DNA of 64,000 bases from Candidatus Nanoarchaeia archaeon (GCA_028718805.1 JAQUKY010000006.1:1927-65926), one strand, 5' to 3'; counted from the stretch's first letter, positions 10,836 through 61,738 are shown. The notes: generated by a model from the sequence alone, not told the origin. Translations and numbers: made by a program.

Positions 10836-10961
10836 AAAAGGTTTATTAATCAATTTTTCTTATAATAATTGATAACTTACAAACTACGACGCAAGGATTA
10901 CTCTTCTCAAGCGTTTATTAGTTATCGATAGCCCAGAGATAAATTAATAAAAAAGAGCAAA

Positions 10962-12158
10962 ATGAAAGAACCTGAATTTTACAGAAAAAAGTTAGATAAT
11001 GGAGTTACTGTTTTATTCGAAAGAAGGCAAGTTCCTGTTGTGGCTGTAGCTAGCAGTGTGAAATCTGGTGCTCAATACGAGTCTGCAGATATAAAAGGAA
11101 TTTCTCATTTTTTAGAGCATCTTGTTTTTAAGGGAACTAAAAAAAGGACAGTACAGGAAATCCCCAAGGAAATAGAAAGCAAGGGAGGGATTATTAATGC
11201 ATTTACAGGAGAAGAGATTACTACTTATTGGAATAAGCTGCCTAGTAAATATTTTGAGTTAGGAGCAGATATTTCCAGGGATTTGGTTTTAAATCCCATA
11301 TTTGAAAAAAATGCTTTGGAGAGGGAAAGAAAAGTTATCTTAGAAGAGATAAAAATGTATCATGATAATCCCAGCACACATGTCTTGGAAAAAGTAAAAG
11401 AGATGCTTTATAGAAAGCCATTTAATATTTCTATAGCAGGTACTGCTGGAACTGTTGGAAAATTGTCAAGAGAAAATATCATCCATTTATTTAATTCATT
11501 TTATTCTACAAACAATATGGTTTTCAGTGTTGTTGGAAAGTGCGAATGGGAGCAGGTTTTAGAAGAAGCTAAAAAATTTTCAAAAACTCAAAAGCAAATT
11601 AAAAAGATACCGATAATATTAAGAAATGGAAACATTGTTGAAAAAAGAAAAGGGATTGATCAGGCTCATTTGGTTTTTGGTTTTCATATACCTAAACTAA
11701 TTGATAAGAACAGGTATGCTGCTGAAATCTTTGATTCTGTATTAGGCGGGGGAATGAGTAGCAGGCTTTTTCAAGAAGTTAGAGAAAAAAAAGGGTTATG
11801 TTACGCAATTAAAAGTGATATGGAACAATCTAAGGATTATGCCTATGAGATAATCTATTCTGGTACTGTTAAGGAGAAAATTGATGAAATCAAAAAAATA
11901 ATACTAAAAGAAATAAAAAAATTAGGGAAATTTGAAAAAGTGGATTTAAATGAAGAAAAAGAAAAATTGATTGGATTAAATCAGATAAATAAGGAAAAAT
12001 GCGATTTAACAATGATAGACTTGCTTCAAGAAGAAATCGGGGGAGATGCAAGAAATTATTATAAATATGAAGATAATATTAATTCAATTAAGCTAGAAGA
12101 AGTAAGAAAATTAAGTAAATTAAAGGGTTATAGCTTTGTTTCTTTAATTCCTGAGTAA
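10962..12158 (+). CDS. M16 family zinc peptidase (insulinase-like)
   Basis: Inverted zinc motif HFLEH, downstream EEI glutamate, GMSSRLFQEVRE. Confidence 0.9.
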   Translation: MKEPEFYRKKLDNGVTVLFERRQVPVVAVASSVKSGAQYESADIKGISHFLEHLVFKGTKKRTVQEIPKEIESKGGIINAFTGEEITTYWNKLPSKYFELGADISRDLVLNPIFEKNALERERKVILEEIKMYHDNPSTHVLEKVKEMLYRKPFNISIAGTAGTVGKLSRENIIHLFNSFYSTNNMVFSVVGKCEWEQVLEEAKKFSKTQKQIKKIPIILRNGNIVEKRKGIDQAHLVFGFHIPKLIDKNRYAAEIFDSVLGGGMSSRLFQEVREKKGLCYAIKSDMEQSKDYAYEIIYSGTVKEKIDEIKKIILKEIKKLGKFEKVDLNEEKEKLIGLNQINKEKCDLTMIDLLQEEIGGDARNYYKYEDNINSIKLEEVRKLSKLKGYSFVSLIPE

Positions 12159-13858: not shown

Positions 13859-14425
13859 ATGGAAGAAAAAATGGGAGCTAGATGTTTTATTGCAATTGAT
13901 TTGTCTAGAGAAGCAATCAATTCAATTAAAGAAATTCAAAAATTATTGAAAAAACAGAGTTTATTTAATGGAAAATTCACAGAGCCTGAAAATTTGCATT
14001 TAACTTTAAAGTTTTTAGGAGAAATTAGCGACGATAAAATTAAAGAAGTCAAAAAAAAGCTGCAAGAGGTTAGTTTTGAAGAATTTGAAGCTGGATTAGG
14101 AGAAGTTGGTGTTTTTTCTAAGAAGTTTATTAAAATTATCTGGATTAAGCTGAAAGGAAATGGAATTTTTGAGTTGCAGAAACAAATAGATGAGAAATTG
14201 ATGGATTTATTTCCTGTTGAAGATAGGTTTATGAGCCATATCACAATTTCAAGGGTAAAAACTGTTGGAGACAAAAAAGCATTGTTAGACTATGTCAGTA
14301 AAGTTAAGACCGAGAATATTAAGCTTAAAGTTGATAAGTTTTTTCTAAAGAAATCTGAGTTAAAGCCTGAGGGACCGGTTTATGAAGATTTAGGGGCATA
14401 TCTTATAAAGAGAAAATATAGTTAA
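13859..14425 (+). CDS. thpR: RNA 2',3'-cyclic phosphodiesterase (2H family)
   Basis: RCFIAIDL, two H-x-T motifs (HLTL, HITI), GPVYE. Confidence 0.9.
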   Translation: MEEKMGARCFIAIDLSREAINSIKEIQKLLKKQSLFNGKFTEPENLHLTLKFLGEISDDKIKEVKKKLQEVSFEEFEAGLGEVGVFSKKFIKIIWIKLKGNGIFELQKQIDEKLMDLFPVEDRFMSHITISRVKTVGDKKALLDYVSKVKTENIKLKVDKFFLKKSELKPEGPVYEDLGAYLIKRKYS

Positions 14426-17387: not shown

Positions 17388-18935
17388 TTATTTTGCAAGC
17401 TCAAAAACAATATCAGGTCCTGACATCCCAACCATTTCTATTGTACCATCACCACCATTATCTTCTAAGTTTTTTCCTGAGCTGTAAACCTTGAACCCTT
17501 CCCCTCTTTTTTGGTATAAGTACGCCTTTCCAGTAAAGGGATCTGTTGGTAAATTCGCAATATTTTGGGGGACAAGCTGCTCGAGTGAATCTGCATATTT
17601 CCCATTTTCTTTTTTGTAGAGCCTATTTGATATTGCAATTTCTGCAGCTCCTAAAACAGCATCCAAAACCGCTTCCTTTTCATAAGTATTATAATATACT
17701 TCAATTATCATTGGGCTAAGATAAATTCCTTTGCTGGTTAATTGCTTATTGTTGTCAGGGAATGATTTGTTAGTTTCATCTAACATTGATTTTATTTTGT
17801 TTCCAGATTCAAAAAATTGCTTTTCTGCTAATGGAACTATTTGGAACATAGAGTCAGCATATAAAGTAAAGTCAATTTTCCATTGATTAAGGCCAAACTT
17901 TAGAGGGTCTGTTCCAAAAAACTTTTTTGCTTCCTTTTTTTCCTTATCACCTGCTTTAAAGTACTCTTCGGGAAAGTTTGTTCTTGACAGGAAAAAAGGT
18001 AAACCTATTGAAACTATCTCTCCTTTTATTGCATAAGCAGAGATATTTTTTTGTCTAATATTTTTTAGTTCATCAAGTATTGCCTGATATGTTCCAATAT
18101 CATTAGGATCTTGCTTTTCCATAAGCTCCTTTATTATTGGTACAGTTTGTAAAACCGCAGAGTTGATTGGAATTTGATATCTTAATAACGGTTCATTTGA
18201 TAATGATTTGGCAAATTTTATTGAGGTGAGGCAAGTGTCATATGATTCTTTAATCTTATTATTTTTCAGTTCAACTTGTGCCCTGCTTATTAGAAAACTA
18301 CTTGCTTCCATTAGCTGATTTAACTGATCTATAAAAAGAGAGTTTGGGCTTGAGCCCAGTTGAGCATATTCTTCATCAGACAAAAATCTGCAATTCATAC
18401 CAGATGCTTTTTTTAGAGTTTCGTATAATTTATCTGAGTTTGGGTCAGAAAAAAGTTTTTTCAATCCTTTTTTTGTTGTTTCTGGAATATTTTCCCATGT
18501 ACGAAATTTGCAGACATTTTCTCCGCAAAATTTACGGATAGGAGGGATACACTCCCATTCTTTTGGATATTCTTGTTGTGATATTTCTAATTGCTGGAAA
18601 GCTTTTTTATAAACAAGCACTCCATTTTCAGTATCTGGAATTTTTATAAGCAATTGTTCTAATGAAGTTGGTATCCCTGCATCTTTTAGCTCTTGAACTT
18701 TTTTTTCATATATTAACTGCATTTCTTGTTTTGTTTTGCATACAGAAATAATTTCTTTTATTAATTCGTTAGGGTCTTGTGTTAGTTCATCAACAATATT
18801 TGATGAAATTGTTGCAGTTGTAACTTCATTCTCTAATGTTTTTTCTTCTCCTTTAATTGGATTAGCAATATAAAGAATTCCTGCTAGCGCTCCAACACCC
18901 AGGACATTCCTTATGCATTTCCAGAGTTTTCTCAT
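17388..18935 (-). CDS. Hypothetical exported protein with pseudopilin-like C-terminal motif
   Basis: N-terminal hydrophobic segment; C-terminal YADSLEQLVP..LPTDPFTGKAYLY..GFKVYSSG.N..DNGG. Confidence 0.6.
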   Translation of the reverse strand: MRKLWKCIRNVLGVGALAGILYIANPIKGEEKTLENEVTTATISSNIVDELTQDPNELIKEIISVCKTKQEMQLIYEKKVQELKDAGIPTSLEQLLIKIPDTENGVLVYKKAFQQLEISQQEYPKEWECIPPIRKFCGENVCKFRTWENIPETTKKGLKKLFSDPNSDKLYETLKKASGMNCRFLSDEEYAQLGSSPNSLFIDQLNQLMEASSFLISRAQVELKNNKIKESYDTCLTSIKFAKSLSNEPLLRYQIPINSAVLQTVPIIKELMEKQDPNDIGTYQAILDELKNIRQKNISAYAIKGEIVSIGLPFFLSRTNFPEEYFKAGDKEKKEAKKFFGTDPLKFGLNQWKIDFTLYADSMFQIVPLAEKQFFESGNKIKSMLDETNKSFPDNNKQLTSKGIYLSPMIIEVYYNTYEKEAVLDAVLGAAEIAISNRLYKKENGKYADSLEQLVPQNIANLPTDPFTGKAYLYQKRGEGFKVYSSGKNLEDNGGDGTIEMVGMSGPDIVFELAK

Positions 18936-36644: not shown

Positions 36645-36656
36645 TGGCGGGGCTAT
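36645..36656 (+). repeat. att-like core TGGCGGGGCTAT, copy 1
   Basis: Exact match; preceded by AGGTTATAACCC, resembling a degenerate T-arm. Confidence 0.9.
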
Positions 36657-36692
36657 CCCCTAGAATGTGATTTTACAGGGCATCCGATTTTT

Positions 36693-37373
36693 TTAGGATG
36701 CAGGTACGGCTTGTTCATTTAGTTCTACTGCTTTTTCTATTAATTTTTTAAAATCCTTTTCAGTTTTATAAAAATCAAGTAGAGGGTCTATGATCCTATT
36801 TACTTCTGGATAAGAGTTTCTAACTTTGTCTAAAGTAATATCAGACCATAATTTACTTAATTCAGGATTAGCAACCATTAAAAGTATGGGGATTGATTCG
36901 TTTACTCCTGTTGATACTGCTTTCGCAGACATTTTCCCTTTTTTGCATACATTAAAATAATGCAAATGAAATAATTCATGAGCGAGTACATATTTCATAA
37001 TTTTTGCAGGCAAAATATTGCTTAAGATCATTTTATTGTATTTTCCATCAAAAATATCTCCTAATCCGGGAACACTCAGGCTAATGTAACATGTATAAGT
37101 TTTATATTTCCAATCAAATCCGGTAAATTCCTTAATCTTTTGGAAATATTCCCCTTCTATATTTTTCCATTCTTTTTTCAATTGCTTTACAAATTCAATA
37201 AATTCTTGTTTTTTATAGCCTTCTTCTATAGCTTTAATTGCAACATCTTTGTCTAGACTTAGTAATCCTAAATGTTCTGGCTTAATTTTTGAAGTCCCAC
37301 AAACTTTGGCAAACTGATGGAGATATTCTAATTCTTTCTCTGTATTTATTTTAAATTTTACAGTTGTTGCCAT
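36693..37373 (-). CDS. Hypothetical zincin-like protein (C1 cargo)
   Basis: AHELFH HExxH motif with downstream NES glutamate. Confidence 0.6.
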   Translation of the reverse strand: MATTVKFKINTEKELEYLHQFAKVCGTSKIKPEHLGLLSLDKDVAIKAIEEGYKKQEFIEFVKQLKKEWKNIEGEYFQKIKEFTGFDWKYKTYTCYISLSVPGLGDIFDGKYNKMILSNILPAKIMKYVLAHELFHLHYFNVCKKGKMSAKAVSTGVNESIPILLMVANPELSKLWSDITLDKVRNSYPEVNRIIDPLLDFYKTEKDFKKLIEKAVELNEQAVPAS

Positions 37374-37446
37374 CTTTTATTAAATAAGGCGCATATTATA
37401 ACCTTTTCTAGGATGCCCATCCTTATCACATTATGGGCTAGTTATC

Positions 37447-37458
37447 TGGCGGGGCTAT
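37447..37458 (+). repeat. att-like core, copy 2
   Basis: Exact TGGCGGGGCTAT. Confidence 0.9.
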
Positions 37459-37485
37459 CTATCATTAGGGTATATTGACGGAACT

Positions 37486-38244
37486 TTATTTTTTTGCGAG
37501 TTTCCACATCATTTGAAAATAAGCTTCGAAAGCTTCTTTTGCATTCCTACTTTTTAAAACAAAAAAAGTCATCTCTTTGGCAAGATTGATTATAACCTTA
37601 TCAGAATAAATGAGGAATATTGCAGGAGTGAGCATATTCTCTGGCATAAACTTAATTTCTACAGGAGGATATCTCTTAAATTCTTTTGCTAAATTTTTAG
37701 CATGATCATTAATAAGAAATTTAGCTTTAATCTTCTTGTCGGATCTTATTTTTTGAAAATAAAGTGCTAGAGGTAAAAACTCTTTTCCAAAATCATAAAC
37801 TCCCATAATATGAACTTCGTCTCCATTATTTAATTCATCAACTAGATTTGTAAATGCAGTCCTTATGCCCCTGTACCCCGAAAAGATAAATGATTCTTTT
37901 TCATCTTCTTTTTCCTGAGAAAAAGCCAAAAGGCTCGGTAAAAGCTCATTTACTTTTTTTTCTTGTTGTTCTATCTCTTTTTTCTTTTCATTAAGAAAAT
38001 TTAATATCATTTTGGGATTTGTTGCTTTGTAATGCTTAACATTTTCTTTTGTAAAATAACTCACTAACCCTTTTTGGATTAGCTTTTCTAAAACTTCGTA
38101 TACTTTAGAGTTAGCGGTTTTTGATTCGTTGATTATTGGCCCAGTTGAGGAAGAACCTAATTTTAGTAAAGAAAGGTACACTTTAATCTCAGACTGGTTT
38201 AATCCAATCTCTTCTAATTGTAATTCTATTTGTGATATGTCCAT
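37486..38244 (-). CDS. TrmB-family transcriptional regulator (C2)
   Basis: IGLNQSEIKVYLSLLKLG wHTH; FQMMWKLAKK end. Confidence 0.85.
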   Translation of the reverse strand: MDISQIELQLEEIGLNQSEIKVYLSLLKLGSSSTGPIINESKTANSKVYEVLEKLIQKGLVSYFTKENVKHYKATNPKMILNFLNEKKKEIEQQEKKVNELLPSLLAFSQEKEDEKESFIFSGYRGIRTAFTNLVDELNNGDEVHIMGVYDFGKEFLPLALYFQKIRSDKKIKAKFLINDHAKNLAKEFKRYPPVEIKFMPENMLTPAIFLIYSDKVIINLAKEMTFFVLKSRNAKEAFEAYFQMMWKLAKK

Positions 38245-38366
38245 AGATAAGTATCTTGTTATTGATATATAAACCTTTTCTTATTACCCCTACCTAAGGA
38301 GGGGATAATATATAAAAAGAAGGAGGTTGTTACTGTATCATAATAAATAAAACAGACAAAAACAAA

Positions 38367-39029
38367 ATGACAAGAGGAATACAAATATTGAAAGAAAATT
38401 ACGGAATGCCTTATGTACTTTTGAAAACATTCTACCAAGTTGGAGAAGGAATGCCAACAAGAGTTACTATCCATGGAAAATATAACATCCAAAATGAAAA
38501 GATAATTATTCCAAAGCCATTCTATGACTTACATGAGGATATTCTTAGAAGAGATGTTAAACCTAAAATTGCAGATTCTATCATAAAAAAAGGTTTCAAT
38601 GTTGCAACAGGGTTGGATGTATATGCTAAGCTTTACTTTATGTCTGAAACAATGAGTGGTAGTTTTCCAATGAATAGTTCTTATGTAATAAAACTGAATG
38701 AAGTTAAGGGATTGGGATTTCTTACAGAAGAAGGATATGCTGGAATGTTTAAAGAAGGTGCATTTACCTGGAGATTTGATAAAGAACATGTTGAGTATAT
38801 TGGAAAATCTTTAAACTTGCTTGATGAAAATTCAAGGGATAAATGGCCCGATTACAGGAGAATTGTTGAATTGCAAGAAAATTTGAAAAAGAGCGATTAT
38901 AAAGCACATGATTTACATAAAGATTTGTCTAATTTAACAACTAAAACCTCTATTCCCTCAAGAATTATAAGATTAGGAGACAATTCTGATTTAGCAAGCA
39001 GAGGACAGCTAGGCATATTCTCTTTTTAA
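38367..39029 (+). CDS. Hypothetical protein (C2 cargo)
   Basis: 220-aa ORF divergent from trmB. Confidence 0.6.
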   Translation: MTRGIQILKENYGMPYVLLKTFYQVGEGMPTRVTIHGKYNIQNEKIIIPKPFYDLHEDILRRDVKPKIADSIIKKGFNVATGLDVYAKLYFMSETMSGSFPMNSSYVIKLNEVKGLGFLTEEGYAGMFKEGAFTWRFDKEHVEYIGKSLNLLDENSRDKWPDYRRIVELQENLKKSDYKAHDLHKDLSNLTTKTSIPSRIIRLGDNSDLASRGQLGIFSF

Positions 39030-39052
39030 CTTATAGTCTATAAAATTAAATA

Positions 39053-39169
39053 TTTGTCACAGCAAGGTGGTCAGATGATTTTATATATAATCCAGAACTA
39101 AGATAATCAACTGAAATAAAAAAAGTTCTGGATTATACCAAGATGGTAGCAAGTCCTGGCGGGGCTATT
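39053..39169 (+). repeat. Shared cassette right-end module, copy 1 (includes core copy 3 at 39157-39168)
   Basis: 113/117 identical to 60910-61026; internal perfect 14-bp inverted repeat at 39086-39099 / 39124-39137. Confidence 0.93.
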
Positions 39170-39227
39170 ATTGAAAAGTAGTGTGCTCTTAATCGTGGTT
39201 TAATAGCAAGCCACAATAAGAAAGAGC

Positions 39228-39540
39228 ATGACTGACATACACAATTTAAATAGAAGATTAGAAGCAACATTGAGGAAAGTGGAAAATTCTTCTATTTCTG
39301 ATAAGAATAAAAAAGCAATTTTTGAGTTTCATAATTTTTGTTTTAGCGAGGGAATTGGGGCTGGAAAAATCCAAAGATATGTTTTTGACCTGGAGAAAAT
39401 AGTTAATCTTCTTAAGAAAGATTTTGATAAATGTAAGAGAGAAGATATTCAGAAAGTTTGTTGGTTTAATAGAAAAGCAAGGTTTCGAGCGACAAGGCTT
39501 TAGCCAGCGAGAAACCTTTAGGAGATTAATTGTGAAATGA
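39228..39540 (+). pseudogene. Truncated, frameshifted tyrosine integrase N-terminal domain
   Basis: DIHNLNRRLE...ISDKNKKAIFEF..FCFSEGIG..KIQRYVFDL...DFDKCKREDIQKV resembles archaeal XerA-like integrase N-termini as I recall them; removing one T near 39457 continues it as VGLIEKQG; no catalytic R-H-x-x-R-Y region follows. Confidence 0.7.
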
Positions 39541-40115
39541 GAGATAAAAATTATTTTCAACTGGATTTTTATGAAGATAAGGAAAGATTTGCAGATTGTT
39601 ATTCTTTAAACCAAATTAAAGACCATGCTAGAATTCAGTATCTTATAAAAAGAGGTTACAGCTTAACAAAACATTATGATTTAAGAATGAAAGAAGAAAT
39701 ATATTTAACAAAAAACCAGAAAACAGAAACTCCACAACATGCATTTTTGGTTTGGGCTTTACTAAAGTATCTAAGAGAGCAAAATTTTCAGGTCTGGAAT
39801 TACAAGACAATTAAGCCAGATATTATTTTTGAAGTTCAAAATAGAAAAATTGCTATTGAAATTGAGACTGGCAAGAATTTAAGGAATAATAGAAAGCAAT
39901 TTTTGGAAAAAATCAATTCACTTTATAAAAATTTTGGCTATAACTGGTTTTTTGTTGTGACAAACAGGGATTTAGTCAAGAAATATAAGAAGTATGGCAG
40001 GACTTACACAAGAAAAAATGTCATAAAAGCAATCTGGAGGTATGTTAATTTTAAGCCAAGAAATTACATGTTAAAACATCGGTTTTGGAAGGGGGGGATG
40101 CAATGGCATTTATAG
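39537..40115 (+). CDS. PD-(D/E)xK-like nuclease-fold protein
   Basis: KPDIIFEVQNRKIAIEIETG; ATGA overlap with the upstream frame. Confidence 0.55.
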   Translation: MRDKNYFQLDFYEDKERFADCYSLNQIKDHARIQYLIKRGYSLTKHYDLRMKEEIYLTKNQKTETPQHAFLVWALLKYLREQNFQVWNYKTIKPDIIFEVQNRKIAIEIETGKNLRNNRKQFLEKINSLYKNFGYNWFFVVTNRDLVKKYKKYGRTYTRKNVIKAIWRYVNFKPRNYMLKHRFWKGGMQWHL

Positions 40116-40177
40116 ACGGAAGAACTTTAAAAAAATACCGCAATTGACACCACATATAATAAAGGGCTAATTTTAAA

Positions 40178-40471
40178 CTAAAATCTCCTTGATATCCCCC
40201 ATTTTTTGCAAATATGGCAATTATTGCTGAAATCTCTTTTTTCAAATTTGCAAAACGTGCTGTTCTTTATAATATTGTTAAAATCCCTAAATTTCATTTC
40301 CTTTATTTCTAAATTATCAATTATTTTTTGAATGTTATCCTCGCACCTTTGTTTATATTCTTCTACAGGAAGCTCAAATTTTTTGCATTTCCAGCAATGC
40401 ATGGCAAAATACATCCCCTTAAGCCTTTTCAATGGCCATTTTGGCCTTTCTTTTATTTCTTGATTAGCCAT
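40178..40471 (-). CDS. Hypothetical Cys-containing protein
   Basis: CWKC and CHIC motifs; overlaps the dubious 5' extension of the opposite-strand ORF. Confidence 0.4.
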   Translation of the reverse strand: MANQEIKERPKWPLKRLKGMYFAMHCWKCKKFELPVEEYKQRCEDNIQKIIDNLEIKEMKFRDFNNIIKNSTFCKFEKRDFSNNCHICKKWGISRRF

Positions 40472-40504
40472 AAAGAATATATATCTATCAGGATATATAA
40501 ATTT

Positions 40505-41497
40505 ATGAGAGATATAATCCAGAGGCTTTTAGCAACAGATAACTCAAAGGAAAGAACAAAACTTCTGGAAAAATTTAGGGAATTTCAATTTGGCAAGAGT
40601 AGAAGAGAGACAGAAAATATTTTATTTGAGATATTTAAGGATGCCAAGCAAATGCTTGAAAATACTAAAGATAATGAGGAAAAAAGAGTTGCCCTAAGAA
40701 CATTAAATGCAATATTTCTTATTTACCCCTCTGAAACCATGGCAGAATTGCTCCAAGTTAAGGCTAAAGAAACTCCGGTTAAAGACAGGGATGTCATGGA
40801 AATAATTGACATTTGTTTGGAATTGCTGGAAGATAATGATGGAAATTTAAGGCTATCAGCTGCATATTTAATTGATCATTTAAGGGGATATATGCCTGAT
40901 TATAATTATGTTGATTTGTTTTATAATCTGCTTTCTTTAAAGAACTCTCCAAAAAACAAAGGCAAAAATAAGAAAACAATTGAATTTTGTTTAAGTAAAA
41001 TATTTTCTCCATTCCTTGAAGCAATTTTGGACGCAAGTTATCCTCTAGAGGTTAAAAAGATGAAAATAAGAGTTCATTCAAAAAATGAGAAGGTTATTAA
41101 CACTGCTATAGATGTCGAACATTTAGCAAATCAAATGGTATCTGAAACTGAAAAATATATTCAAAAAATTCTGGCAATAAGAGGAGAATATCTTCTTGAA
41201 GGCAATTTTATCCCTTACATAGAAAATATTGGTATTTTTCAGATCTTCTATGAAATGCAAAGGCTAAGAGAACTTTATTTAAAAGGAGAAATAAATAAAG
41301 AATTAATGAAAAATTATCTGAACAGCCGAATTTCTATTTTTGCGAATAATAGAATTGATATGCTTGATGGTCTTTCAGAAAGAGAAGAATTCTCATTGGT
41401 TTTAATGGATTTTAATAAGAATCTTGTTGTTAAAGATCTGCAGGAAACATATGATTTTTTAATAAAAATAAATTCTGTAATAGAAAATCTGAGTTGA
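40505..41497 (+). CDS. Hypothetical HEAT-repeat-like protein
   Basis: Probable ATG at 40505; helical repeats such as DNDGNLRLSAAYLI. Confidence 0.55.
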   Translation: MRDIIQRLLATDNSKERTKLLEKFREFQFGKSRRETENILFEIFKDAKQMLENTKDNEEKRVALRTLNAIFLIYPSETMAELLQVKAKETPVKDRDVMEIIDICLELLEDNDGNLRLSAAYLIDHLRGYMPDYNYVDLFYNLLSLKNSPKNKGKNKKTIEFCLSKIFSPFLEAILDASYPLEVKKMKIRVHSKNEKVINTAIDVEHLANQMVSETEKYIQKILAIRGEYLLEGNFIPYIENIGIFQIFYEMQRLRELYLKGEINKELMKNYLNSRISIFANNRIDMLDGLSEREEFSLVLMDFNKNLVVKDLQETYDFLIKINSVIENLS

Positions 41498-41625
41498 AAC
41501 ATATAAATTTTAATGCACATATCCAATAAATTACCTTCATATTCTTTGTTGCTAATGTGTTATCAGGATAATCCAAAGCTTTATATACCTCTGGTGTATA
41601 TTTATACAATAAAGGTGTATAATAA

Positions 41626-42213
41626 ATGATAACTAATAATGAGAGAAAGGTATTGAAGATGCTGTTGTATGCATTTGGCGAGAGTTATTCAATAAACCGC
41701 ATTGCAAAAGAATGTAAGCTAGCTCCAAATGGAGCATTAAAAATATTAAGAAAATTTGAAAAAGAGGGCATATTAGACTTTGAGAATATTGGAAATATGA
41801 AATCCTATAGCTTAAACTTTGAAGATGAAAAAACAAAGAATATTCTAAGATTAGCTTTAATTCCTGAGTTAAAAGCAAGGCTCAAATATCGGGCTGAGGA
41901 TTTAAAGCATTTGAAGGAATTTACAGAGGCTTGCATTATTTTCGGCTCCTATGCTGATTTAAGAAAAGAGCCAAATGATATAGATTTGTTTTTTATTGTT
42001 AAAAACAAAAAATTTAATGATTATAAAAAAGAAAGCCCTTTGGTTTATAAGACAATGCCTATTAAAGTTCATGATATCCTGCAGACAAATAAAGATGTTG
42101 CTGAAAATCTTAAGAAAAAAGATAAGGTAATTATAGAAATACTTAAAACAGGAATAATCCTATGGGGATATGACAAGATAATTAATATTATTGAAAATGG
42201 CTATAAAAAATAA
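41626..42213 (+). CDS. wHTH + minimal nucleotidyltransferase (MNT) antitoxin
   Basis: N-terminal HTH (SINRIAKECKLAPNGALKIL); IIFGSYA...NDIDLFFI GS-DxD motif. Confidence 0.8.
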   Translation: MITNNERKVLKMLLYAFGESYSINRIAKECKLAPNGALKILRKFEKEGILDFENIGNMKSYSLNFEDEKTKNILRLALIPELKARLKYRAEDLKHLKEFTEACIIFGSYADLRKEPNDIDLFFIVKNKKFNDYKKESPLVYKTMPIKVHDILQTNKDVAENLKKKDKVIIEILKTGIILWGYDKIINIIENGYKK

Positions 42214-42697
42214 GTTAAAAGAATGCATGAAAGAAGGCAAAAAGGGAGAAAGGCATAAAGGATTGAGGGAGATAGAACCTTCAATGAAAATTGCACAAGG
42301 ACATATCAGCAAGGCAATACATAACCTTAATGCAATAGACACTTTTCATGATGATGGATATTCAGACTGGAGTGCATCAGCTGCTTTTTACTGCTTGTAC
42401 CATTGTTTGCTCGCTGTAATCTCCAAAAAAGGCTTTGAGTCTAGAAATCAATCCTGTACTTTTGCATTGATTGAAAACATGATTGAGAATAATGGAATAA
42501 GCCTGACAAAAGAAGAGCTTAAAGAAATATTTGACAAAGATGTGACAGAAGATTTGAGCCATAGCGACAAAATTTTAGATATAAGGGAAAATATGCAGTA
42601 TTCAATTAAAACTGCATTAGAAGAGAAAGAGTTCCAGTTTTTAAAACAGAGAACAAAGTTCTTATTTGATAAATTAAGAAAAGAAGTTGAAAAGTGA
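42191..42697 (+). CDS. HEPN-domain protein (toxin partner)
   Basis: DWSASAAFYCLYHCLLA, SRNQSCT, IRENMQY; overlaps the MNT gene. Confidence 0.8.
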   Translation: MKMAIKNKLKECMKEGKKGERHKGLREIEPSMKIAQGHISKAIHNLNAIDTFHDDGYSDWSASAAFYCLYHCLLAVISKKGFESRNQSCTFALIENMIENNGISLTKEELKEIFDKDVTEDLSHSDKILDIRENMQYSIKTALEEKEFQFLKQRTKFLFDKLRKEVEK

Positions 42698-42790
42698 CAT
42701 CACCAAAAAATATAAATACAAGTGCCACTTTAGATAATTTTAATTGATTAATAACTAAAAAAAGAACACGCTACTTTCTGCCCTAGGCAC

Positions 42791-43870
42791 TGGCGGGGCT
42801 ATATACCTTTTTGGCAGATTTTGGGGATATGGACTTACCTTGAATTTATTATTCTCCTCGAGATTCAAGGCTATTTAAAGACTGCTACGGTGAGAGATAG
42901 AATATATTGTGTTGTTAATCATCTATTCGGAGAGCAGATATTGCTTGAAAATCTGGCTCGAACTCTAAGGATTTTTCATCTTCTCCCATATCAATCTTGG
43001 GATTTATCAAGAACTTAGCTATCTCCTTGCGAGCACATTTAGGTTTCATGTTTTTGACTTGGGGTGCTAGAGAAACCAATGCCTTGTAAGCATCATTTGT
43101 AAATGCAGCAAGATAATCCCACGCAGATTCAAACCTACCTAGGGAATCATAATTTTCAGAATGGCAAGTGGTAGTGGCTATTGAATACAATGCTCTAATT
43201 TTCTGGTCACCAGGCAATTTTTCTATTACACATATAAAACCGCTTATATAATCTGCAATTAAACTGTCTTCACGAACTTTGTCATCTTCTTCAATGTAAT
43301 CAAAGTGATAACGCCAAATATTGTTAAATTTTCTTAGCCAGCCATTTGACTCTGGAGAAGATACTGCCATTTGTAAAACTGAAGCAAGATTTGATATATA
43401 TTCAAATGAATGCACTCTTGTATCTATTTCCCTAAGCCCTTCTTTAACTTTTTTATTAAAGTAATCAACCGTATTAGAGAAATTTATATCTGCATTTTCA
43501 TTTGGTTTTACTGGAACAACTGATTTGGAAAAATCTTCTCCATTTGAACAAAGACCTTCAAGCCCTTTGTAACATAATACTCGCTGGCTCATATTGATAT
43601 TAGGGAATTAAGTTAGACTATTTAACATTTATTATAATCAAATAATACATTCAAATAGTTCTGTGTTTTACCCTGTTAATATTTCCTAACGATATATTTT
43701 TTAGATTTTTCCTTCTAGGATTGTCATCTCTCATTGCTTTTATGGGGGTGTATCTTCATATTTATCGATGGTAAACTAAGCTTTTATATCTCTGGTATAA
43801 GAGCTATATCATAGCCCCTTGAATCTGTTTAAAAGTTCTAGTCTTGGCGGGGCTATATACCTTTTTGGCA
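42791..43870. mobile_element. Cassette C4, bounded by a 26-bp direct repeat
   Basis: TGGCGGGGCTATATACCTTTTTGGCA at 42791-42816 and 43845-43870; weak inverted repeat (21/30) at 42803-42831 / 43810-43839. Confidence 0.75.
42915..43592 (-). CDS. Hypothetical protein (C4 cargo)
   Basis: 225-aa ORF without a recognisable motif. Confidence 0.6.
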   Translation of the reverse strand: MSQRVLCYKGLEGLCSNGEDFSKSVVPVKPNENADINFSNTVDYFNKKVKEGLREIDTRVHSFEYISNLASVLQMAVSSPESNGWLRKFNNIWRYHFDYIEEDDKVREDSLIADYISGFICVIEKLPGDQKIRALYSIATTTCHSENYDSLGRFESAWDYLAAFTNDAYKALVSLAPQVKNMKPKCARKEIAKFLINPKIDMGEDEKSLEFEPDFQAISALRIDD

Positions 43871-57411: not shown

Positions 57412-58308
57412 ATGAGATTGTTGATGGAAAAAGGAAAGCAGAAAGAATTGCTTAAAAAAGAAAAAGAAAAACGCAAATTAACCTGGAGCAAATTTGCTTT
57501 AATATTGAATATAAGACCCTCTAAGCTAAAAACTTTCTTTAATGAGGAGGTTTTAATGGACAGTTTAACTTTTAATAAATTATTTTTAAAAAAAGAATAT
57601 AAAAAGTTTATTGTGAAAAAATTAGAGAATAACTGGGGGCAATCAAAAGGCGGAAAAAATTCAGATGGTAATTTAAAAGAGATTAAAATTCCGAAGAGAG
57701 CAGAAGAATTAGCAGAGCTTTGGGGAATTCTGCTCGGAGATGGAAATATACAAAAAACTTCTGGATATAAGCTAGGAACATATACTATAAAGGTTACTGG
57801 ACATTCTATATTAGATAGAGAATATCTTATTAAATTTGTTGAACCTTTAATCAAAAATTTGTTTAATGTTAAGATAAGAATATATGAATCAAAGGTTAGT
57901 AACGCACTTAATGTTATTGCAGATAGCAGGAGAATTATTGACTTTTTTGAGGAGAATGAGTTCAAAGCAGGAGATAAAATAAGAAATCAGGTTACAATTC
58001 CTAGTTGGATAAGAAGTAACCATAAATTTTTAGCTGCCTGTTTAAGAGGGCTGTATGATACTGATGGATCTTTTTATAGATTAGGAAACCAGAATAGTTA
58101 CCAGATTAATTTTAAAAATCTTAATAAAACTCTTTTAAAAGACGTTCATGATAGTTTAATTAGTTTGGGTTTAAGCCCTTCAAAAATTAGTGGAAGTATC
58201 CAGATATATATAACAAAAAAATCTGAAATAGCAAAATTTTATAAATTGATTGGATTTCACAATCCTAAGCACCTTAACAAAATAAGAGCTTATTTTAAAG
58301 CCCTGTAG
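57412..58308 (+). CDS. Stand-alone double-motif LAGLIDADG endonuclease-like protein
   Basis: LWGILLGDGNI and LRGLYDTDGSF motifs; N-terminal HTH-like segment; stop codon lies within the tRNA. Confidence 0.8.
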   Translation: MRLLMEKGKQKELLKKEKEKRKLTWSKFALILNIRPSKLKTFFNEEVLMDSLTFNKLFLKKEYKKFIVKKLENNWGQSKGGKNSDGNLKEIKIPKRAEELAELWGILLGDGNIQKTSGYKLGTYTIKVTGHSILDREYLIKFVEPLIKNLFNVKIRIYESKVSNALNVIADSRRIIDFFEENEFKAGDKIRNQVTIPSWIRSNHKFLAACLRGLYDTDGSFYRLGNQNSYQINFKNLNKTLLKDVHDSLISLGLSPSKISGSIQIYITKKSEIAKFYKLIGFHNPKHLNKIRAYFKAL

Positions 58309-58371
58309 TGTAGCGGTCAAGCATTCGGCCCTTTGGAGGCTGAGACCTCGGTTCGAATCCGAGCAGGGCTA
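58299..58371 (+). tRNA. trnQ: tRNA-Gln(UUG), no encoded CCA
   Basis: Cloverleaf: acceptor AGCCCTG/CAGGGCT (A1-U72), anticodon arm CGGCC-CTTTGGA-GGCTG, T arm CTCGG-TTCGAAT-CCGAG. Confidence 0.97.
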
Positions 58372-58399
58372 TCTATCATTATGATATATTGACGGAACT

Positions 58400-59116
58400 T
58401 TATTTCTTTGCGAGTTTCCATAAAGCATTAAACTGGCTTCTAAGAGAATTCGCAATTTCCTTATTTTCGGTAAGTATTGCATAATAAGGAGAAGTCCATA
58501 TAAAATTAGCTACTTTATTTCCATAGACCGCTATTGTTACAGGAGACAGGTATTCTTTAGGCAAATATCTAAACTCAGAATTCTTTGAACTTACTACTAT
58601 TCCTCTTAAATCTTCCCTAACCAAGACTTTTTCATGGATATTATTTTTTACAATTTGATTTAGGAACTGGTGTATGTCTATAGGAAGAACCTGCTGAAAT
58701 CTTCCCTCTTCTCCAAATGCAACATAGTCTTTTTTTGTCCTGATAAGGTCTTTTAATACTGCTTTTAATCCTTCCTTGCCTCTGAATATCTCAACTCTTG
58801 TTTCTTCTTCTTTGGCTTTTGTTAAATTAATAAGCTCTGGCATTACCTCTTGCAATTTTAATTCTTTTTCTTTTAAGTCCTGCAATAATTTTTTGGGATT
58901 AGCAGAAGAAAAGTATTTTACATTATTCTTAATAATGTATGAAACCAATCCTTTTTCAATCAGCTTATTTGTTAACTGATAAATTAAAGTTCTGTCTAAA
59001 TTTGTCTTTTCTGATATTTTTGTAGCAGTGGTTTCTCCTAGCTGAAGAAGGGCAAGGTAAACCTTGCATTCTTTTTCTTCCAATCCCAAATCCTGCAAAA
59101 GCTTTGTCAGTTCCAT
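58400..59116 (-). CDS. TrmB-family transcriptional regulator (cassette B)
   Basis: LGLEEKECKVYLALLQLG; IFRGKEG; FNALWKLAKK. Confidence 0.85.
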   Translation of the reverse strand: MELTKLLQDLGLEEKECKVYLALLQLGETTATKISEKTNLDRTLIYQLTNKLIEKGLVSYIIKNNVKYFSSANPKKLLQDLKEKELKLQEVMPELINLTKAKEEETRVEIFRGKEGLKAVLKDLIRTKKDYVAFGEEGRFQQVLPIDIHQFLNQIVKNNIHEKVLVREDLRGIVVSSKNSEFRYLPKEYLSPVTIAVYGNKVANFIWTSPYYAILTENKEIANSLRSQFNALWKLAKK

Positions 59117-59153
59117 TATAACAATAGAGAATCCTTATTTATAAATTTATTTA

Positions 59154-59176
59154 TTGTTGTTATTTAATCACAACAA
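59154..59176. promoter_or_regulatory. Palindrome TTGTTGT-N9-ACAACAA, putative TrmB operator
   Basis: 7-bp inverted repeat in the divergent promoter region. Confidence 0.5.
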
Positions 59177-59208
59177 ATCTTTAAGTAGTATCTCGTTACT
59201 ATTGGTTT

Positions 59209-59874
59209 ATGGTAAATACAAGAAGTTCGTGTTGTTATGCAAGCGAGAGAGAAGCCACACTATATGGGGCTTTGGCAGAATTAGATGTAAATAAAAAAAG
59301 AGAGCCTGCTCTTATTAAAGTAGTCAAATCTTTTGACTTGTCAATTCTTGATTATGTTAAACCAATCAATAGAAGTCTTCTAGAAATTCAGAATAATTAT
59401 TTACAAAGCGGGAAAAAGGCTAAACATAGAATTGAGGATTATTGGGACAGCAAAGAAATTGATTCTTTTAATGGGTTAGTTAATTGCCTAAATCTCGAAT
59501 CTGACGATTGTGATGCAGTTAGAAAAGGCAAGGTCTTCATAAAAAAGGGAAAAGTGAATGTAATTCCTACTTGCGGTTGGGGGGGAGGAAAATCAAGCGA
59601 TGAGGCAATTAATGGAATGATTTTTGGGGCCGTGTTGGGCGGGGTTTTTTCGTCATTAGGTCAGGCATTTTACCAGATAATCAAAGGAAACTCTATTGAT
59701 ACTTTTAATGTTTATTCTATAGGAAGAACAGCATTGATTGGGGGTTTGATTGTAGGATATATTTTTAGTAGAGGGATGTATATAGAGAGTGCTTTAGTAA
59801 ATCCCTTTGAAAGGATTGCATCAGGACTTGAACAAAGAGCAGATTATGTTTCTAAAAATATATTGGAGTATTAA
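59209..59874 (+). CDS. Hypothetical membrane protein (cassette B cargo)
   Basis: Two Gly-rich hydrophobic segments near the C-terminus. Confidence 0.6.
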   Translation: MVNTRSSCCYASEREATLYGALAELDVNKKREPALIKVVKSFDLSILDYVKPINRSLLEIQNNYLQSGKKAKHRIEDYWDSKEIDSFNGLVNCLNLESDDCDAVRKGKVFIKKGKVNVIPTCGWGGGKSSDEAINGMIFGAVLGGVFSSLGQAFYQIIKGNSIDTFNVYSIGRTALIGGLIVGYIFSRGMYIESALVNPFERIASGLEQRADYVSKNILEY

Positions 59875-59876
59875 AA

Positions 59877-60443
59877 ATGAAATTTAAAAAATTAGTTATA
59901 GGAACTGGAATTGCAGGAGGGCTTGCAGCAATAGTTTTAGGAGGAATTTCTTTGTTTGGGGGGTGGGGGAGTAGGGGAACAAGTGTTGAAAAATGTATTG
60001 GACATTTTAATAGAAAATCTATAGATATTGTAAAAGAAGACATAAGGTTTGGACCAGATCATAAGTATGTGATGATTGATAATAGAGACATAATAGTAGA
60101 TGGTATCATAAAATCAGATGAGGGAAAATATCTTAACATCAGTTCTGGTGCCAGAGTTTTAGTATCTTATGAACCTCGGATATATTCGTTTGTTGAGTAT
60201 TATAAAAAACAACGACTTGAGTCTTTTAAATATTTAGAAAGCAAGGCTGAAATTGATATTTGGGAGAGTACGAGTACGGGATATCCAGCTTATCTATTTG
60301 AAGTAGGACTTGGGTGCATGTGTGTTAAAAAAGGAGCAATAACAAATGATGCGGGAGATAGAGTCTATATTGGAGATGGGTATTTTATAAGACCTGGCAG
60401 TCAAAATAAAGATTCTAATTCTGTTAAGGAGAAAGTAAAATGA
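59877..60443 (+). CDS. Hypothetical exported protein (cassette B cargo)
   Basis: N-terminal signal/anchor. Confidence 0.6.
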   Translation: MKFKKLVIGTGIAGGLAAIVLGGISLFGGWGSRGTSVEKCIGHFNRKSIDIVKEDIRFGPDHKYVMIDNRDIIVDGIIKSDEGKYLNISSGARVLVSYEPRIYSFVEYYKKQRLESFKYLESKAEIDIWESTSTGYPAYLFEVGLGCMCVKKGAITNDAGDRVYIGDGYFIRPGSQNKDSNSVKEKVK

Positions 60444-60751
60444 ACAAAGAAGATATGATTAGTTTTGGGGTGCTTACAGTTATAGCCTTGGCCACATCTA
60501 TGGGTTTTGTCTCGGTTATGAAATATGCCTTAAATCGTAATGGAAAAGAGGCTTTAAATCTTCCACAAAACTCTAACATTAAACAGATTTCACGGCCTGA
60601 AGATTATAATAATGATGGAATATTAGATTATATTGTAAAATATAGAGATGGTAAATCTAAAATTTTTTATGGTAGAGGGTATGATGAAAGAGATATTGAA
60701 GGTAAGGTAGAATGGTACGACTTTGGATCTAGGGCGAGAATCTTAAAATAG
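60440..60751 (+). CDS. Hypothetical membrane-anchored protein with DxNxDG loop
   Basis: N-terminal TM; DYNNDGILD Ca-binding-like motif; ATGA overlap. Confidence 0.6.
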   Translation: MNKEDMISFGVLTVIALATSMGFVSVMKYALNRNGKEALNLPQNSNIKQISRPEDYNNDGILDYIVKYRDGKSKIFYGRGYDERDIEGKVEWYDFGSRARILK

Positions 60752-60770
60752 AATTAAAATTATTTTAAAA

Positions 60771-60908
60771 ATGCAATCAAAACAATTCACCATCACAGAA
60801 AGAATAGCTAAACATGGCAGTCAAGCTATAATTGTAATTCCAAAGATTCTAGAAGATAATCTAAAACCGGGAATTTTGACTCAAGTAACTATTGAAATAC
60901 TAAGTTGA
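60771..60908 (+). CDS. Small AbrB/SpoVT-like (swapped-hairpin) protein (45 aa), not in ORF track
   Basis: MQSKQFTITERIAKHGSQAIIVIPKILEDNLKPGILTQVTIEILS; G-x4-IVIPK pattern. Confidence 0.6.
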   Translation: MQSKQFTITERIAKHGSQAIIVIPKILEDNLKPGILTQVTIEILS

Positions 60909-60909
60909 T

Positions 60910-61026
60910 TTTGTCACAGCAAGGTGGTCGGATGATTTTATATATAACTCAGAACTGAGATAATCAACTGAAATAAAAAAAGTTCTGGATTATACCAAGA
61001 TGGTAGCAAGTCCTGGCGGGGCTATT
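60910..61026 (+). repeat. Shared cassette right-end module, copy 2 (includes core copy 6)
   Basis: 113/117 identical to 39053-39169. Confidence 0.93.
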
Positions 61027-61027
61027 T

Positions 61028-61738
61028 TTAATGTTTCTTATATCTACCTCTTGATTCAACTTTTTCTAATTGTTTGAGGATTTTATCTTTATCTTTGCTG
61101 TTGTAGCCCTTAATTATATGTTCAAAAAGAGATTTCCAATATAAAAAATGTTTTGCTTCCAAGGCTTGTCTTATTAAATGCAGATCAACTGCTTTGTCCT
61201 CGATTCTTTTTGAATGGAATCCTAGTCCGAAATCTATAAAATAGATTTTGAAATTTTTGTCTGATATTTTATTTTGGTAATCTGATAAACGATTTTTAAG
61301 TTTGTTTTGAGTAGCATAAGCTGTTTTAGAATTATTGATATCGGTTTTATTTTTTGAGTCTTCTTCTACATAGATCATATTAGAAGTTGTTAAGTCCCCG
61401 TGGATTATGTCTGAATCATGAAGTTTTGCTATTTCCTGGCCTATTTGCTCTGCAATTTGGTTTTTATTTTCTAAATTATCTAGGTAATCTGAGAGTTTTT
61501 TCCCTTCGATAGGCTCCATTATTATTTTATTATCTTTTGTCTCAATTACTTTTGGTACATTTACTAGCTTAGAAACTTTTTCAAGAATTTTTGCTTCTGA
61601 TTTTGTTCTTTTTTTCCTTAGGTTTTCATCTAGAACAGGGATTCTGTAGGATTTTTTTGTTCTATCCTTTATTATTTGATTACCTTTTAATGAGATGATT
61701 GCTTCTGCGCCTTGTGCGATGATTTTTTGTTTTTGCAT
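61028..61738 (-). CDS. bud32: KEOPS kinase Bud32, with long loop insertion
   Basis: QGAEA, RTKSEAKIL, HGDLTTSNM, DFG, EDKAVDL. Confidence 0.93.
   Translation of the reverse strand: MQKQKIIAQGAEAIISLKGNQIIKDRTKKSYRIPVLDENLRKKRTKSEAKILEKVSKLVNVPKVIETKDNKIIMEPIEGKKLSDYLDNLENKNQIAEQIGQEIAKLHDSDIIHGDLTTSNMIYVEEDSKNKTDINNSKTAYATQNKLKNRLSDYQNKISDKNFKIYFIDFGLGFHSKRIEDKAVDLHLIRQALEAKHFLYWKSLFEHIIKGYNSKDKDKILKQLEKVESRGRYKKH

Follow-up and report, generated by a model that had tools for sequence, protein, structure and literature searches.

Probable site-specific integration of an integrase-less cassette at a secondary tRNA-Gln site in a nanoarchaeal genome

A 64,000-nt stretch of DNA from a Candidatus Nanoarchaeia archaeon (hereafter the window; C6:1927-65926 of the draft genome G000, 1.18 Mb in 18 contigs with ~31% G+C) carries a small gene cassette, termed cassette B, lodged between a tRNA-Gln(UUG) gene and the bud32 gene. 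The locus raises the question of how a cassette bounded by two unlike core sequences came to rest at the 3' end of an intact tRNA. The initial annotation had noted that the two cores share only GGGCTAT and had proposed that a tyrosine recombinase exchanged strands in these terminal 7 bp, which would let an element with a tRNA-Gln-type core use this tRNA as a secondary target. The observation was confirmed, and the proposal gained support from comparison with the rest of the genome and with related genomes. On this comparative evidence, cassette B probably arose by site-specific integration into a secondary tRNA site, with the integrase supplied in trans and the effective crossover in the last 6-7 bp.

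The only tRNA within the window is tRNA-Gln(UUG) at 58299-58371 on the plus strand (ARAGORN; Rfam RF00005, 60.6 bits versus a gathering score of 29), and it is the one UUG glutamine tRNA among the 37 tRNAs found in the genome. ARAGORN recovers a full cloverleaf, so that the gene is intact despite the insertion. As integration target it would supply the B arm and crossover core of attB. The tRNA ends ...GGTTCGAATCCGAGCAGGGCTA and continues into TCTATCATTATG...; the left junction at 58350-58380 accordingly reads ...GGTTCGAATCCGAGCAGGGCTA, then T, then CTATCATT. The right junction reads ...AGTCCTGGCGGGGCTAT followed by TTTTAATG at 61010-61033 or, taken from 61000, ...GGTAGCAAGTCCTGGCGGGGCTAT followed by TTTTAATG. 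GGGCTAT is present at 58366-58372 and again at 61019-61025. It forms the end of the left 12-mer, the attL core GAGCA/GGGCTAT (58361-58372, plus strand), in which the host-type GAGCA is retained, and of the right core TGGCGGGGCTAT, the attR core TGGCG/GGGCTAT (61014-61025, plus strand). These 12-mers are identical at 9 of 12 positions, and GGGCTAT is their sole uninterrupted identity.

Cassette B itself extends from 58373 to 61025 (2,653 bp). The bud32 stop codon TAA (TTA on the plus strand) lies at 61028-61030, 2 nt beyond the right core, and because the right core abuts this stop, the tRNA abutted bud32 when the cassette arrived. Bud32 is a RIO-type kinase with RIO/kinase Pfam matches, encoded at 61028-61738 on the minus strand, convergent with the tRNA, and its gene forms the host flank B'. 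It is not truncated, because the proteins of relatives align to within 0-8 residues of its C-terminus. Removal of the cassette in silico restores the empty locus that the initial annotation had rebuilt, a tRNA ending in GGGCTA followed by TTT and the stop codon, with a T5 run set against the bud32 stop. The predicted joint of this empty site is ...CCGAGCAGGGCTAT/TTTTAATGTTTC..., and the predicted junction of the circularized cassette is ...GCAAGTCCTGGCGGGGCTAT/CTATCATTATGATATATTG....

The right core does not derive from the tRNA beside which the cassette sits. Instead, TGGCGGGGCTAT matches exactly the 3' end of the other glutamine isoacceptor, tRNA-Gln(CUG), located on contig C10 at c[43683-43758] (...AATCCTGGCGGGGCTA; in longer form ...GGTTCGAATCCTGGCGGGGCTA), the comparison that had been advised as a check. 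Ends of the two tRNAs differ at three positions (G/T, A/G and A/G), all within the five bases directly 5' of GGGCTA. At each of the three, the left junction keeps the UUG tRNA's own base; attL is thus host-type at 3/3 and attR element-type at 3/3. Integration by a tyrosine recombinase generates attL as B-O-P' and attR as P-O-B'. The observed attL comprises host TCCGAGCA, GGGCTAT and CTATCATT..., the last being the element left arm as found in a sister cassette, C2. The observed attR comprises ...GTCCTGGCG, which is element sequence as in C2 and all other cores, then GGGCTAT and the host sequence TTTTAATG from the end of bud32. The first element-specific base of the left arm is the C that follows GGGCTAT. 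With host-type bases in attL and element-type bases in attR at all three positions, the effective crossover would therefore be confined to GGGCTA(T). Placing the crossover in the last 7 bp explains these junctions most economically, though other readings exist.

Two further occupied sites are each less restrictive than cassette B. In element E4, part of an array on contig C10, the left junction shows TGGCG and the right one TAGCG, so that exchange there also took place to the right of the variant base. The second site belongs to a relative, G032, in which a 679-nt insert with an open reading frame (ORF) of 156 amino acids ends in a right core, CTGGCGGGGCTAT, 8 nt from the bud32 stop. This core equals the genome's own unoccupied tRNA-Gln(CUG) end and not its own UUG tRNA end, CTGGTGGGGCTAG; the junctions read CTGGTGGGGCTA/G at the UUG tRNA end and CTGGCGGGGCTA/T at the right core. 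G032 may thus hold a second CUG-type core at a UUG tRNA, the two types being told apart there by a single base, perhaps mutated later. Supposing that G032 was acted on by the same enzyme family, the interval of exchange common to these sites would be the hexamer GGGCTA. Of the 37 tRNAs found, the two for glutamine end in this hexamer and no others do, which would fit a need for identity there.

A variant of secondary-site integration places the overlap further 5' (for example CCTGGCG), spanning the mismatches, and has the resulting heteroduplex followed by selection for the daughter chromosome whose host-type strand at attL kept the tRNA intact. Junctions formed in this way would mimic a crossover in GGGCTAT. 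Some tyrosine recombinases, IntDOT among them, do tolerate heterology (PMC2817482), and because there is a single tRNA-Gln(UUG) gene, products damaging this tRNA would be lost. Against this, three mismatches in a 7-bp overlap would stop most tyrosine recombinases (PMC8371274). The junctions of cassette B, E4 and G032 all fit exchange in the terminal 6-7 bp, with no element-type base at attL, and the sole alternative tRNA used is also the sole other tRNA ending in GGGCTA. We consider such a displaced overlap unlikely and rate it below exchange in the terminal bases; it is retained because the arms of cassette B and of seven other small cassettes, described below, are symmetrical about a centre near TGGCG and not about GGGCTAT.

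Could a shared 7-mer be fortuitous? Bare GGGCTAT occurs 11 times in the window versus 5.9 expected, which is not significant. The 12-mer TGGCGGGGCTAT, by comparison, has six exact copies in the window, five of which punctuate an array at 36645-43856; when the 12-mer search was repeated on shuffles, the mean was 1.2 matches with ≤2 mismatches and none of 100 shuffles reached 7. The whole genome holds 12 copies, on contigs C6, C8 and C10, and the Gln core punctuates cassette arrays on these three contigs; each of 60 relatives has 0-6. Coincidence was dropped as an explanation because the 12-mer and both end modules of the cassette are repeated, common as GGGCTAT may be by itself.

Those end modules are best seen in cassette C2 (37459-39168, plus strand), a member of the array at 36645-43856, which has the same two modules as cassette B and a TrmB-like gene, carries different cargo and is bounded on both sides by CUG-type cores. 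Identity to the C2 right end (window 39053-39168) is 96-97% over the 116-120 nt that precede the right core, and identity to the C2 left end (window 37449-37506) is 93% over the 58 nt that run onward from the left core. Homology between the two cassettes starts exactly at GGGCTAT on the left, where GAGCA precedes it in cassette B versus TGGCG in C2, and stops at GGGGCTATT on the right. Because both ends are shared, the limits of the mobile unit are defined to the base. The left-end module, or P' arm (58373-58420, plus strand; CTATCATTATGATATATTGACGGAAC...), includes the last seven codons of the TrmB-like gene and the left arm of an inverted repeat, and the right-end module, or P arm (60910-61013, plus strand), contains the right arm of that repeat and a TATA-like box. 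A search for the right-end module in 49 genomes of the genus found it in G000 only. Left arms after Gln cores conform in most such cassettes to the consensus T-n-T-A-y-C-w-T-T-w-T-G, which is also recognisable after two integrase-bearing elements.

Repeated modules of this kind can mislead an assembler, and a mis-join through them in a metagenome-assembled genome would create a false junction. The draft is in 18 contigs, and the right-end module shares a long exact stretch with C2, 22 kb off on the same contig. At the left junction, however, exact matches to C2 reach no more than ~21 nt and are broken by mismatches, which makes it unlikely that repeats misled the assembly at the joint between tRNA and cassette. 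At the right end, a swap would exchange two near-identical modules and leave the junction sequence unchanged, and occupied sites of the same kind are seen independently in relatives. We therefore give an assembly artefact hardly any credence.

If cassette B was integrated by a recombinase, that enzyme would be encoded elsewhere. None of its five ORFs matches PF00589 or any other recombinase, transposase or Cas1 family in Pfam/NCBIfam, and tblastn with the integrase described next gave no match inside the cassette. At the primary site, ~100 nt downstream of tRNA-Gln(CUG) and on the same strand, lies an intact 384-amino-acid tyrosine recombinase ORF (C10 42430-43581). It was not picked up by a whole-genome PF00589 scan; we found it as the ORF beside tRNA-Gln(CUG) and confirmed it by hmmscan (PF00589, 33.8 bits versus a cut-off of 27.1). 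Alignment to the XerA structure 4a8e matched the first catalytic Arg (GIRAPTEL versus GLRV-SEL) and the Arg-His box (FRHCS versus LRHSF). An array of four elements (20.1, 4.2, 2.3 and 1.9 kb) starts here at tRNA-Gln(CUG) (C10 15205-43758, minus strand). The presence of a CUG-type right core at the UUG tRNA supports the earlier suggestion that a tRNA-Gln-type core used this tRNA as a secondary target, and the C10 integrase appears to be the best candidate for the enzyme that moved it.

Relatives of this integrase occupy a variety of tRNA genes. A paralogue, 68% identical, lies just downstream of tRNA-Arg(GCG) at C4 42607-44031; a repeat of that tRNA end was sought on contig C4 to size the paralogue's core, and none was present on that contig. 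Orthologues occur in 20 of 61 related genomes. Eleven orthologue loci were fetched, and in five a tRNA gene adjoins the integrase: tRNA-Glu(UUC) twice, tRNA-Glu(CUC), tRNA-Cys and tRNA-Ser(UGA). None of the 11 is directly beside a tRNA-Gln gene. With its paralogue and orthologues placed beside 3' ends of tRNA genes for Arg, Glu, Cys and Ser, the integrase family does change tRNA targets. A second integrase family, kin of one beside tRNA-Ser(UGA) on contig C4, is represented only by an N-terminal remnant, in cassette C3 of the array on contig C6.

Several other features of the integrase loci were noted. The array on C10 is closed by a variant core, TAGCGGGGCTAT, followed by a T-rich flank; its first element carries, besides the integrase, a 1,114-amino-acid gene resembling a DNA methyltransferase/restriction enzyme by sequence motifs, and a degenerate tRNA-like start (AGCCTCGTAGTCTGGCGGTTAAGA) follows the core at C10 23552. 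The paralogue on contig C4 is preceded by a similar left arm (TCTTCACATTTTGT...GTGGGAC). Most tRNAs of this genome are followed directly by a T-run. Two exceptions on contig C1 are tRNA-Gly(CCC) at c[18281-18356], followed by TCTATTACAATA, and tRNA-Ile at c[14018-14094], followed by TCATAATAAATA. Both sequences resemble cassette left arms, and other integrated elements may reside at these two tRNAs.

Whether the rebuilt empty site is a credible ancestral locus was addressed with relatives, at genus/order level. The bud32 gene was located in 58 of 61 genomes, and tRNA-Gln(UUG) lies ≤1.1 kb from its 3' end at 25 of the 29 loci fetched. At these 25, the two genes are convergent, as in the window, in 14 cases and co-directional in 11, and 17 have ribosomal protein S15 encoded on the other side. 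Among the convergent loci, five have a naturally unoccupied site, where the gap measures -1, 16, 25, 35 or 37 nt and mostly starts with a T-run. The tRNA-bud32 adjacency and these short gaps lend plausibility to the reconstruction, and at genus level the outcome named beforehand as refuting it, a conflicting sequence between tRNA and bud32 in relatives without cassette B, did not arise. Four convergent loci contain a repeat of the tRNA end inside the gap. In G016, two ~100-nt units are present, the last of which ends in an exact 14-nt repeat, CCGGGTGGGGCTAT, of that genome's own tRNA end, 8 nt from the bud32 stop. Other gaps hold unrelated small genes, and no homology to the cargo of cassette B was found among the relatives' inserts at this site. 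An exact 37-nt pattern from the 3' half of the tRNA had no matches in metagenome and genome collections; its 22-nt 3' end matched 92 loci, the best tRNA identity being 65/73, with no close strain.

The relatives also bear on whether the two cores differed at the time of integration. They could have been identical then, had the UUG tRNA ended in TGGCGGGGCTA, as in some present-day relatives, and later changed its T-stem and acceptor stem, or had the right core been homogenised by gene conversion. The stem sequences of tRNA-Gln(UUG) vary widely across the genus, and the tRNA ends in CCTGGCGGGGCTA in G017, G010, G030 and G031. Donors for conversion are at hand, since the genome has 12 near-identical cores and a second copy of the right-end module with 97% identity. 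Later divergence, however, would require three substitutions on the 3' strand of a tRNA that is essential and single-copy, and three more on the 5' strand to compensate; over the same time the 12-nt right core would have had to remain as it was and the 120-nt right module to keep 96-97% identity. Moreover, the acceptor end CAGGGCTA is also found in G024 and G014, and the T-stem CCGAG in G008. The present tRNA end therefore looks like an old feature of the lineage. Identity of the cores at integration is in our judgment quite improbable.

A sequence of events consistent with these data can be outlined. Cassette B, itself devoid of an integrase, would be one of a family in which attP includes the last 12-13 bases of tRNA-Gln(CUG). 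A tyrosine recombinase encoded elsewhere, for which the C10 integrase is the best candidate, would insert the cassette, in circular form, at the 3' end of tRNA-Gln(UUG), which at the time of integration would have stood 3 nt from the bud32 stop codon. Strand exchange that spared the tRNA would be limited to the shared GGGCTA(T), yielding a hybrid attL of host GAGCA, GGGCTAT and the element left arm, and a hybrid attR of element ...TCCTGGCG, GGGCTAT and host TTTTAA.... The identity of the acting integrase, the passage through a circular form and the exact positions of cleavage are deduced and not observed steps of this scheme.

Some points weigh against it. The link between cassette B, which has no integrase, and the C10 integrase comes from location and arm similarity only. 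The G032 replicate differs at one base within the 12-nt core, where later mutation is possible. Even the nearest relatives are too distant (tRNA ≤65/73; Bud32 protein ≤79% identical) for the empty junction to be compared base by base. Finally, the centre of the inverted-repeat arms lies ~9 nt left of GGGCTAT, which departs from the symmetric core-overlap-core arrangement of lambda-type sites.

These arms merit closer description. An imperfect inverted repeat of ~44 nt links the ends of cassette B (58373-58416 and 60963-61006); its local alignment score is 17, versus 8.7 ± 1.6 in shuffles, of which 0 of 300-500 reach it. Of the two arms, the left one follows GGGCTAT without a gap, and the right one stops 12 nt short of it. 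Eight small cassettes share this geometry, namely cassette B, cassettes C1-C4 on contig C6, the C8 cassette at 39378-42630, and elements E3 and E4 on C10, with the left arm 0-6 nt after GGGCTAT and the right arm 11-18 nt before. Arm sequences differ between cassettes and match within each cassette, and their centre of symmetry falls near TGGCG, outside GGGCTAT. Neither the 20-kb integrase-bearing element E1 nor E2 holds this geometry.

Terminal inverted repeats and a flanking 7-bp direct repeat invite a different view of cassette B, as a transposon-like element that duplicated a GGGCTAT target. The ~44-nt repeat linking the ends is indeed significant, and the direct repeat is indeed 7 bp long. 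The right arm, however, stops 12 nt short of the repeat, and because those 12 nt (CAAGTCCTGGCG) continue the homology to tRNA(CUG), the would-be duplication is not flush with the ends. Homology of the right copy to tRNA(CUG) runs at least 5 bases beyond the 7-mer, on that side only, which is unlike a target duplication. Nor does the cassette encode a transposase or Cas1, and sister cassettes are bounded by 12-13-nt cores instead of 7-mers, all sharing the tRNA-derived core. Insertion is at a tRNA 3' end, in the orientation typical of integrase elements, and no copies with different 7-bp duplications at non-tRNA sites have been found so far. Transposition is, in our estimation, very improbable, in agreement with the initial annotation, which had set the locus apart from transposase and casposase products.

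A more speculative possibility is that the small cassettes constitute an integron-like system specific to archaea of the DPANN group. Integrase-less cassettes would each have their own self-complementary pair of arms around a fixed tRNA-Gln core. These arms would be recognised by structure and not by sequence, for instance through a hairpin or cruciform that only the excised circle would adopt, and one tRNA-adjacent integrase would shuffle the cassettes in trans among several chromosomal sites. Folding as single strands gave mixed results. The rejoined junction of the C8 cassette reached -23.8 kcal/mol versus a non-cognate mean of -12.7, and that of cassette C1 likewise folds clearly better in cognate pairing; for cassette B there was no clear gain (-11.1 versus -10.2 kcal/mol). 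The right end of cassette B taken alone folded no better than shuffles (z = -0.82) and had no Rfam match, the tRNA being the only one, and the idea that this end holds a structured RNA or an attC-like hairpin was dropped. We regard the integron-like interpretation as doubtful. Were it true, any GGGCTA site would be a possible target, including the other Gln isoacceptor and non-tRNA array sites on contigs C6 and C8.

Integration at a secondary tRNA site, the interpretation we prefer, has ample precedent. Secondary attachment sites are familiar from phage lambda. Among archaeal integrases, secondary-site integration, tandem arrays and gene capture are documented, and SSV1 integrates into a site with two mismatches (PMC8371274). 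SGI1 combines secondary-site with tandem integration (PMC2297512). As in these cases, cassette B occupies a site with a partial match to the primary attB, has hybrid attL and attR, and might be trapped there ('gene capture'); it is unlike them in that its site is a sister isoacceptor tRNA matching at 9 of the last 12 bases, the terminal 7 contiguously, and in being known here from sequence alone.

Archaeal elements integrated at tRNA 3' ends by non-SSV (intact-gene) tyrosine integrases are often stacked in tandem (PMC8371274; PMC6563490). Cassette B resembles them in its intact tRNA 3'-end target, the direct repeat of a tRNA end, tandem arrays with one core, and a recombinase beside the tRNA at the primary site, and at genus level the unoccupied site exists as well. 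It differs in being only 2.65 kb long, without replication genes or an integrase of its own and hence not self-sufficient, in having unequal bounding repeats because its target is the other isoacceptor, and in its DPANN-type host. In one literature search on DPANN, integrase and tRNA, no cassettes of this kind were described.

Cis-mobilizable elements (CIMEs) and integrative mobilizable elements (IMEs) offer a further comparison. These grow by site-specific accretion beside an integrase-bearing element (PMC5704250 and PMC6323972). Loss of the integrase gene, capture through mismatched att sites, and att-bounded integrase-less elements that use a neighbour's integrase have likewise been described (PMC8371274, PMC6563490, PMC5704250 and PMC2297512). 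Like CIMEs and IMEs, cassette B is bounded by att sites, has no recombinase of its own, is found together with arrays, and is predicted to rely on the integrase of another element with the same att specificity, a cognate candidate for which is present at the primary att site in the genome. Those elements are bacterial and tied to conjugation; cassette B has no evident transfer functions, and it sits on another contig and another tRNA than the integrase-bearing element. It would thus work like a cis-mobilizable cassette at a secondary site.

Integron cassettes are also small and integrase-less, with variable cargo, sequence-variable self-complementary sites and an organization in arrays. Cassette B, however, lacks IntI, attI and Pc. 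No integrase is adjacent, there is no whole attC at the 3' end, and each cassette end holds one half of the palindrome, near whose centre the crossover lies. In addition, the core is tRNA-derived, the folding signal is weak, and the cassette has its own divergently transcribed TrmB-like regulator. As for transposons and casposons, no corresponding gene is present, the repeat is not flush and all cassettes share one core.

The junction of cassette B amounts to a natural heterologous cross that would map exchange to the last 6-7 bp, corresponding to five acceptor-stem bases, the discriminator base and possibly the next T. For this uncultivated lineage it is the only positional information on exchange. 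It also suggests a concrete route by which a tRNA-specific integrase system could switch tRNA, namely through an isoacceptor, in a family found beside Gln, Arg, Glu, Cys and Ser tRNAs. The interval between tRNA-Gln(UUG) and bud32 is documented here as a recurrent landing place for accessory genes in these reduced, host-dependent archaea. The sequences predicted for attP, attB(CUG) and attB(UUG), together with a candidate integrase, now suffice for setting up a simple recombination assay.

The cargo of cassette B consists of four ORFs and a conserved small one. A TrmB-family winged-helix regulator of 238 amino acids (58400-59116, minus strand; Pfam PF01978, 59.9 bits) is followed on the plus strand by an ORF of 221 amino acids with two glycine-rich hydrophobic segments near the C-terminus, as read from the sequence (59209-59874), an ORF of 188 amino acids with an N-terminal hydrophobic anchor (59877-60443), and an ORF of 103 amino acids, also with an N-terminal hydrophobic anchor and with a weak FG-GAP-like match below cut-off (60440-60751). 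The small conserved ORF encodes 45 amino acids (60771-60908, plus strand). Those of 45, 188 and 221 amino acids had no Pfam or NCBIfam matches, Pfam being searched up to E = 10, and the AbrB-like look of the 45-amino-acid product is an impression only. A paralogue of the 103-amino-acid ORF (73% identical) lies on contig C2. The TrmB-like proteins of cassettes B and C2 are 30% identical, and the remaining cargo of these two cassettes is unrelated. The C8 cassette (39378-42630) repeats the layout of cassette B, with a core, TrmB on the minus strand, three ORFs and the 45-amino-acid ORF on the plus strand, and a core.

At least 15 paralogues of the 45-amino-acid ORF are present in the genome, usually near a TrmB-like gene. 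With ~24 TrmB-like paralogues alongside them in 1.18 Mb, such modules form a very large paralogous family for so small a genome. Members of a pair are often within 1-3 kb of each other, most without a nearby Gln core; examples lie at 10052-11699, 39832-41195 and 82288-83851 on contig C5, 3170-4114 on contig C11 and 39863-41137 on contig C2. A third copy of the left-end module shared by cassette B and cassette C2 occurs on contig C5 at 38280-38335, behind another TrmB-like gene, and is preceded by a decayed core, TCAAGGCTAT, where GGCGGGGCTAT would be expected. The TATA-like box of the right-end module, TTTTATATATAA at window 60935-60951, points outward to the core and the bud32 3' end; if active, it would direct transcription antisense to bud32 or, in arrays, into the next cassette.

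On its 5' side, tRNA-Gln(UUG) is overlapped by a LAGLIDADG gene (window 57412-58308). Orthologues 64-70% identical occupy the same position in three relatives (L005, L006 and L007), and the gene is therefore a conserved neighbour of the tRNA in a subclade and not a recent arrival. In other relatives, the spacing from S15 to the tRNA is only ~110-150 nt.

Traces of tRNA-Gln ends are found elsewhere as well. In several relatives, mini-arrays of 80-150-nt units, each ending in the last 11-14 bases of the tRNA, follow both tRNA-Gln isoacceptors (L041 of G016, 1583-1865; L138 of G036, 961-1262; L139 of G031, 205-585; L140 of G023, 980-1220; L135 of G034, 1-120). These units may be empty cassettes or solo att-site scars. 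The 35-nt gap of L009 (G008) contains a decayed second T-arm and acceptor fragment, GGATTTGAATCCCGGCAGGGACAT, directly against the bud32 stop, which looks like the scar of a lost element with a longer piece of tRNA in its attP. Finally, on four unrelated DPANN-type metagenome contigs (L100, L087, L060 and L085), tRNA-Gln(CUG) ends in GAGCAGGGCTA and a second ...ACAGAGCAGGGCTAT follows 30-50 nt on; short repeats of the tRNA-Gln end are therefore widespread beyond the genus.

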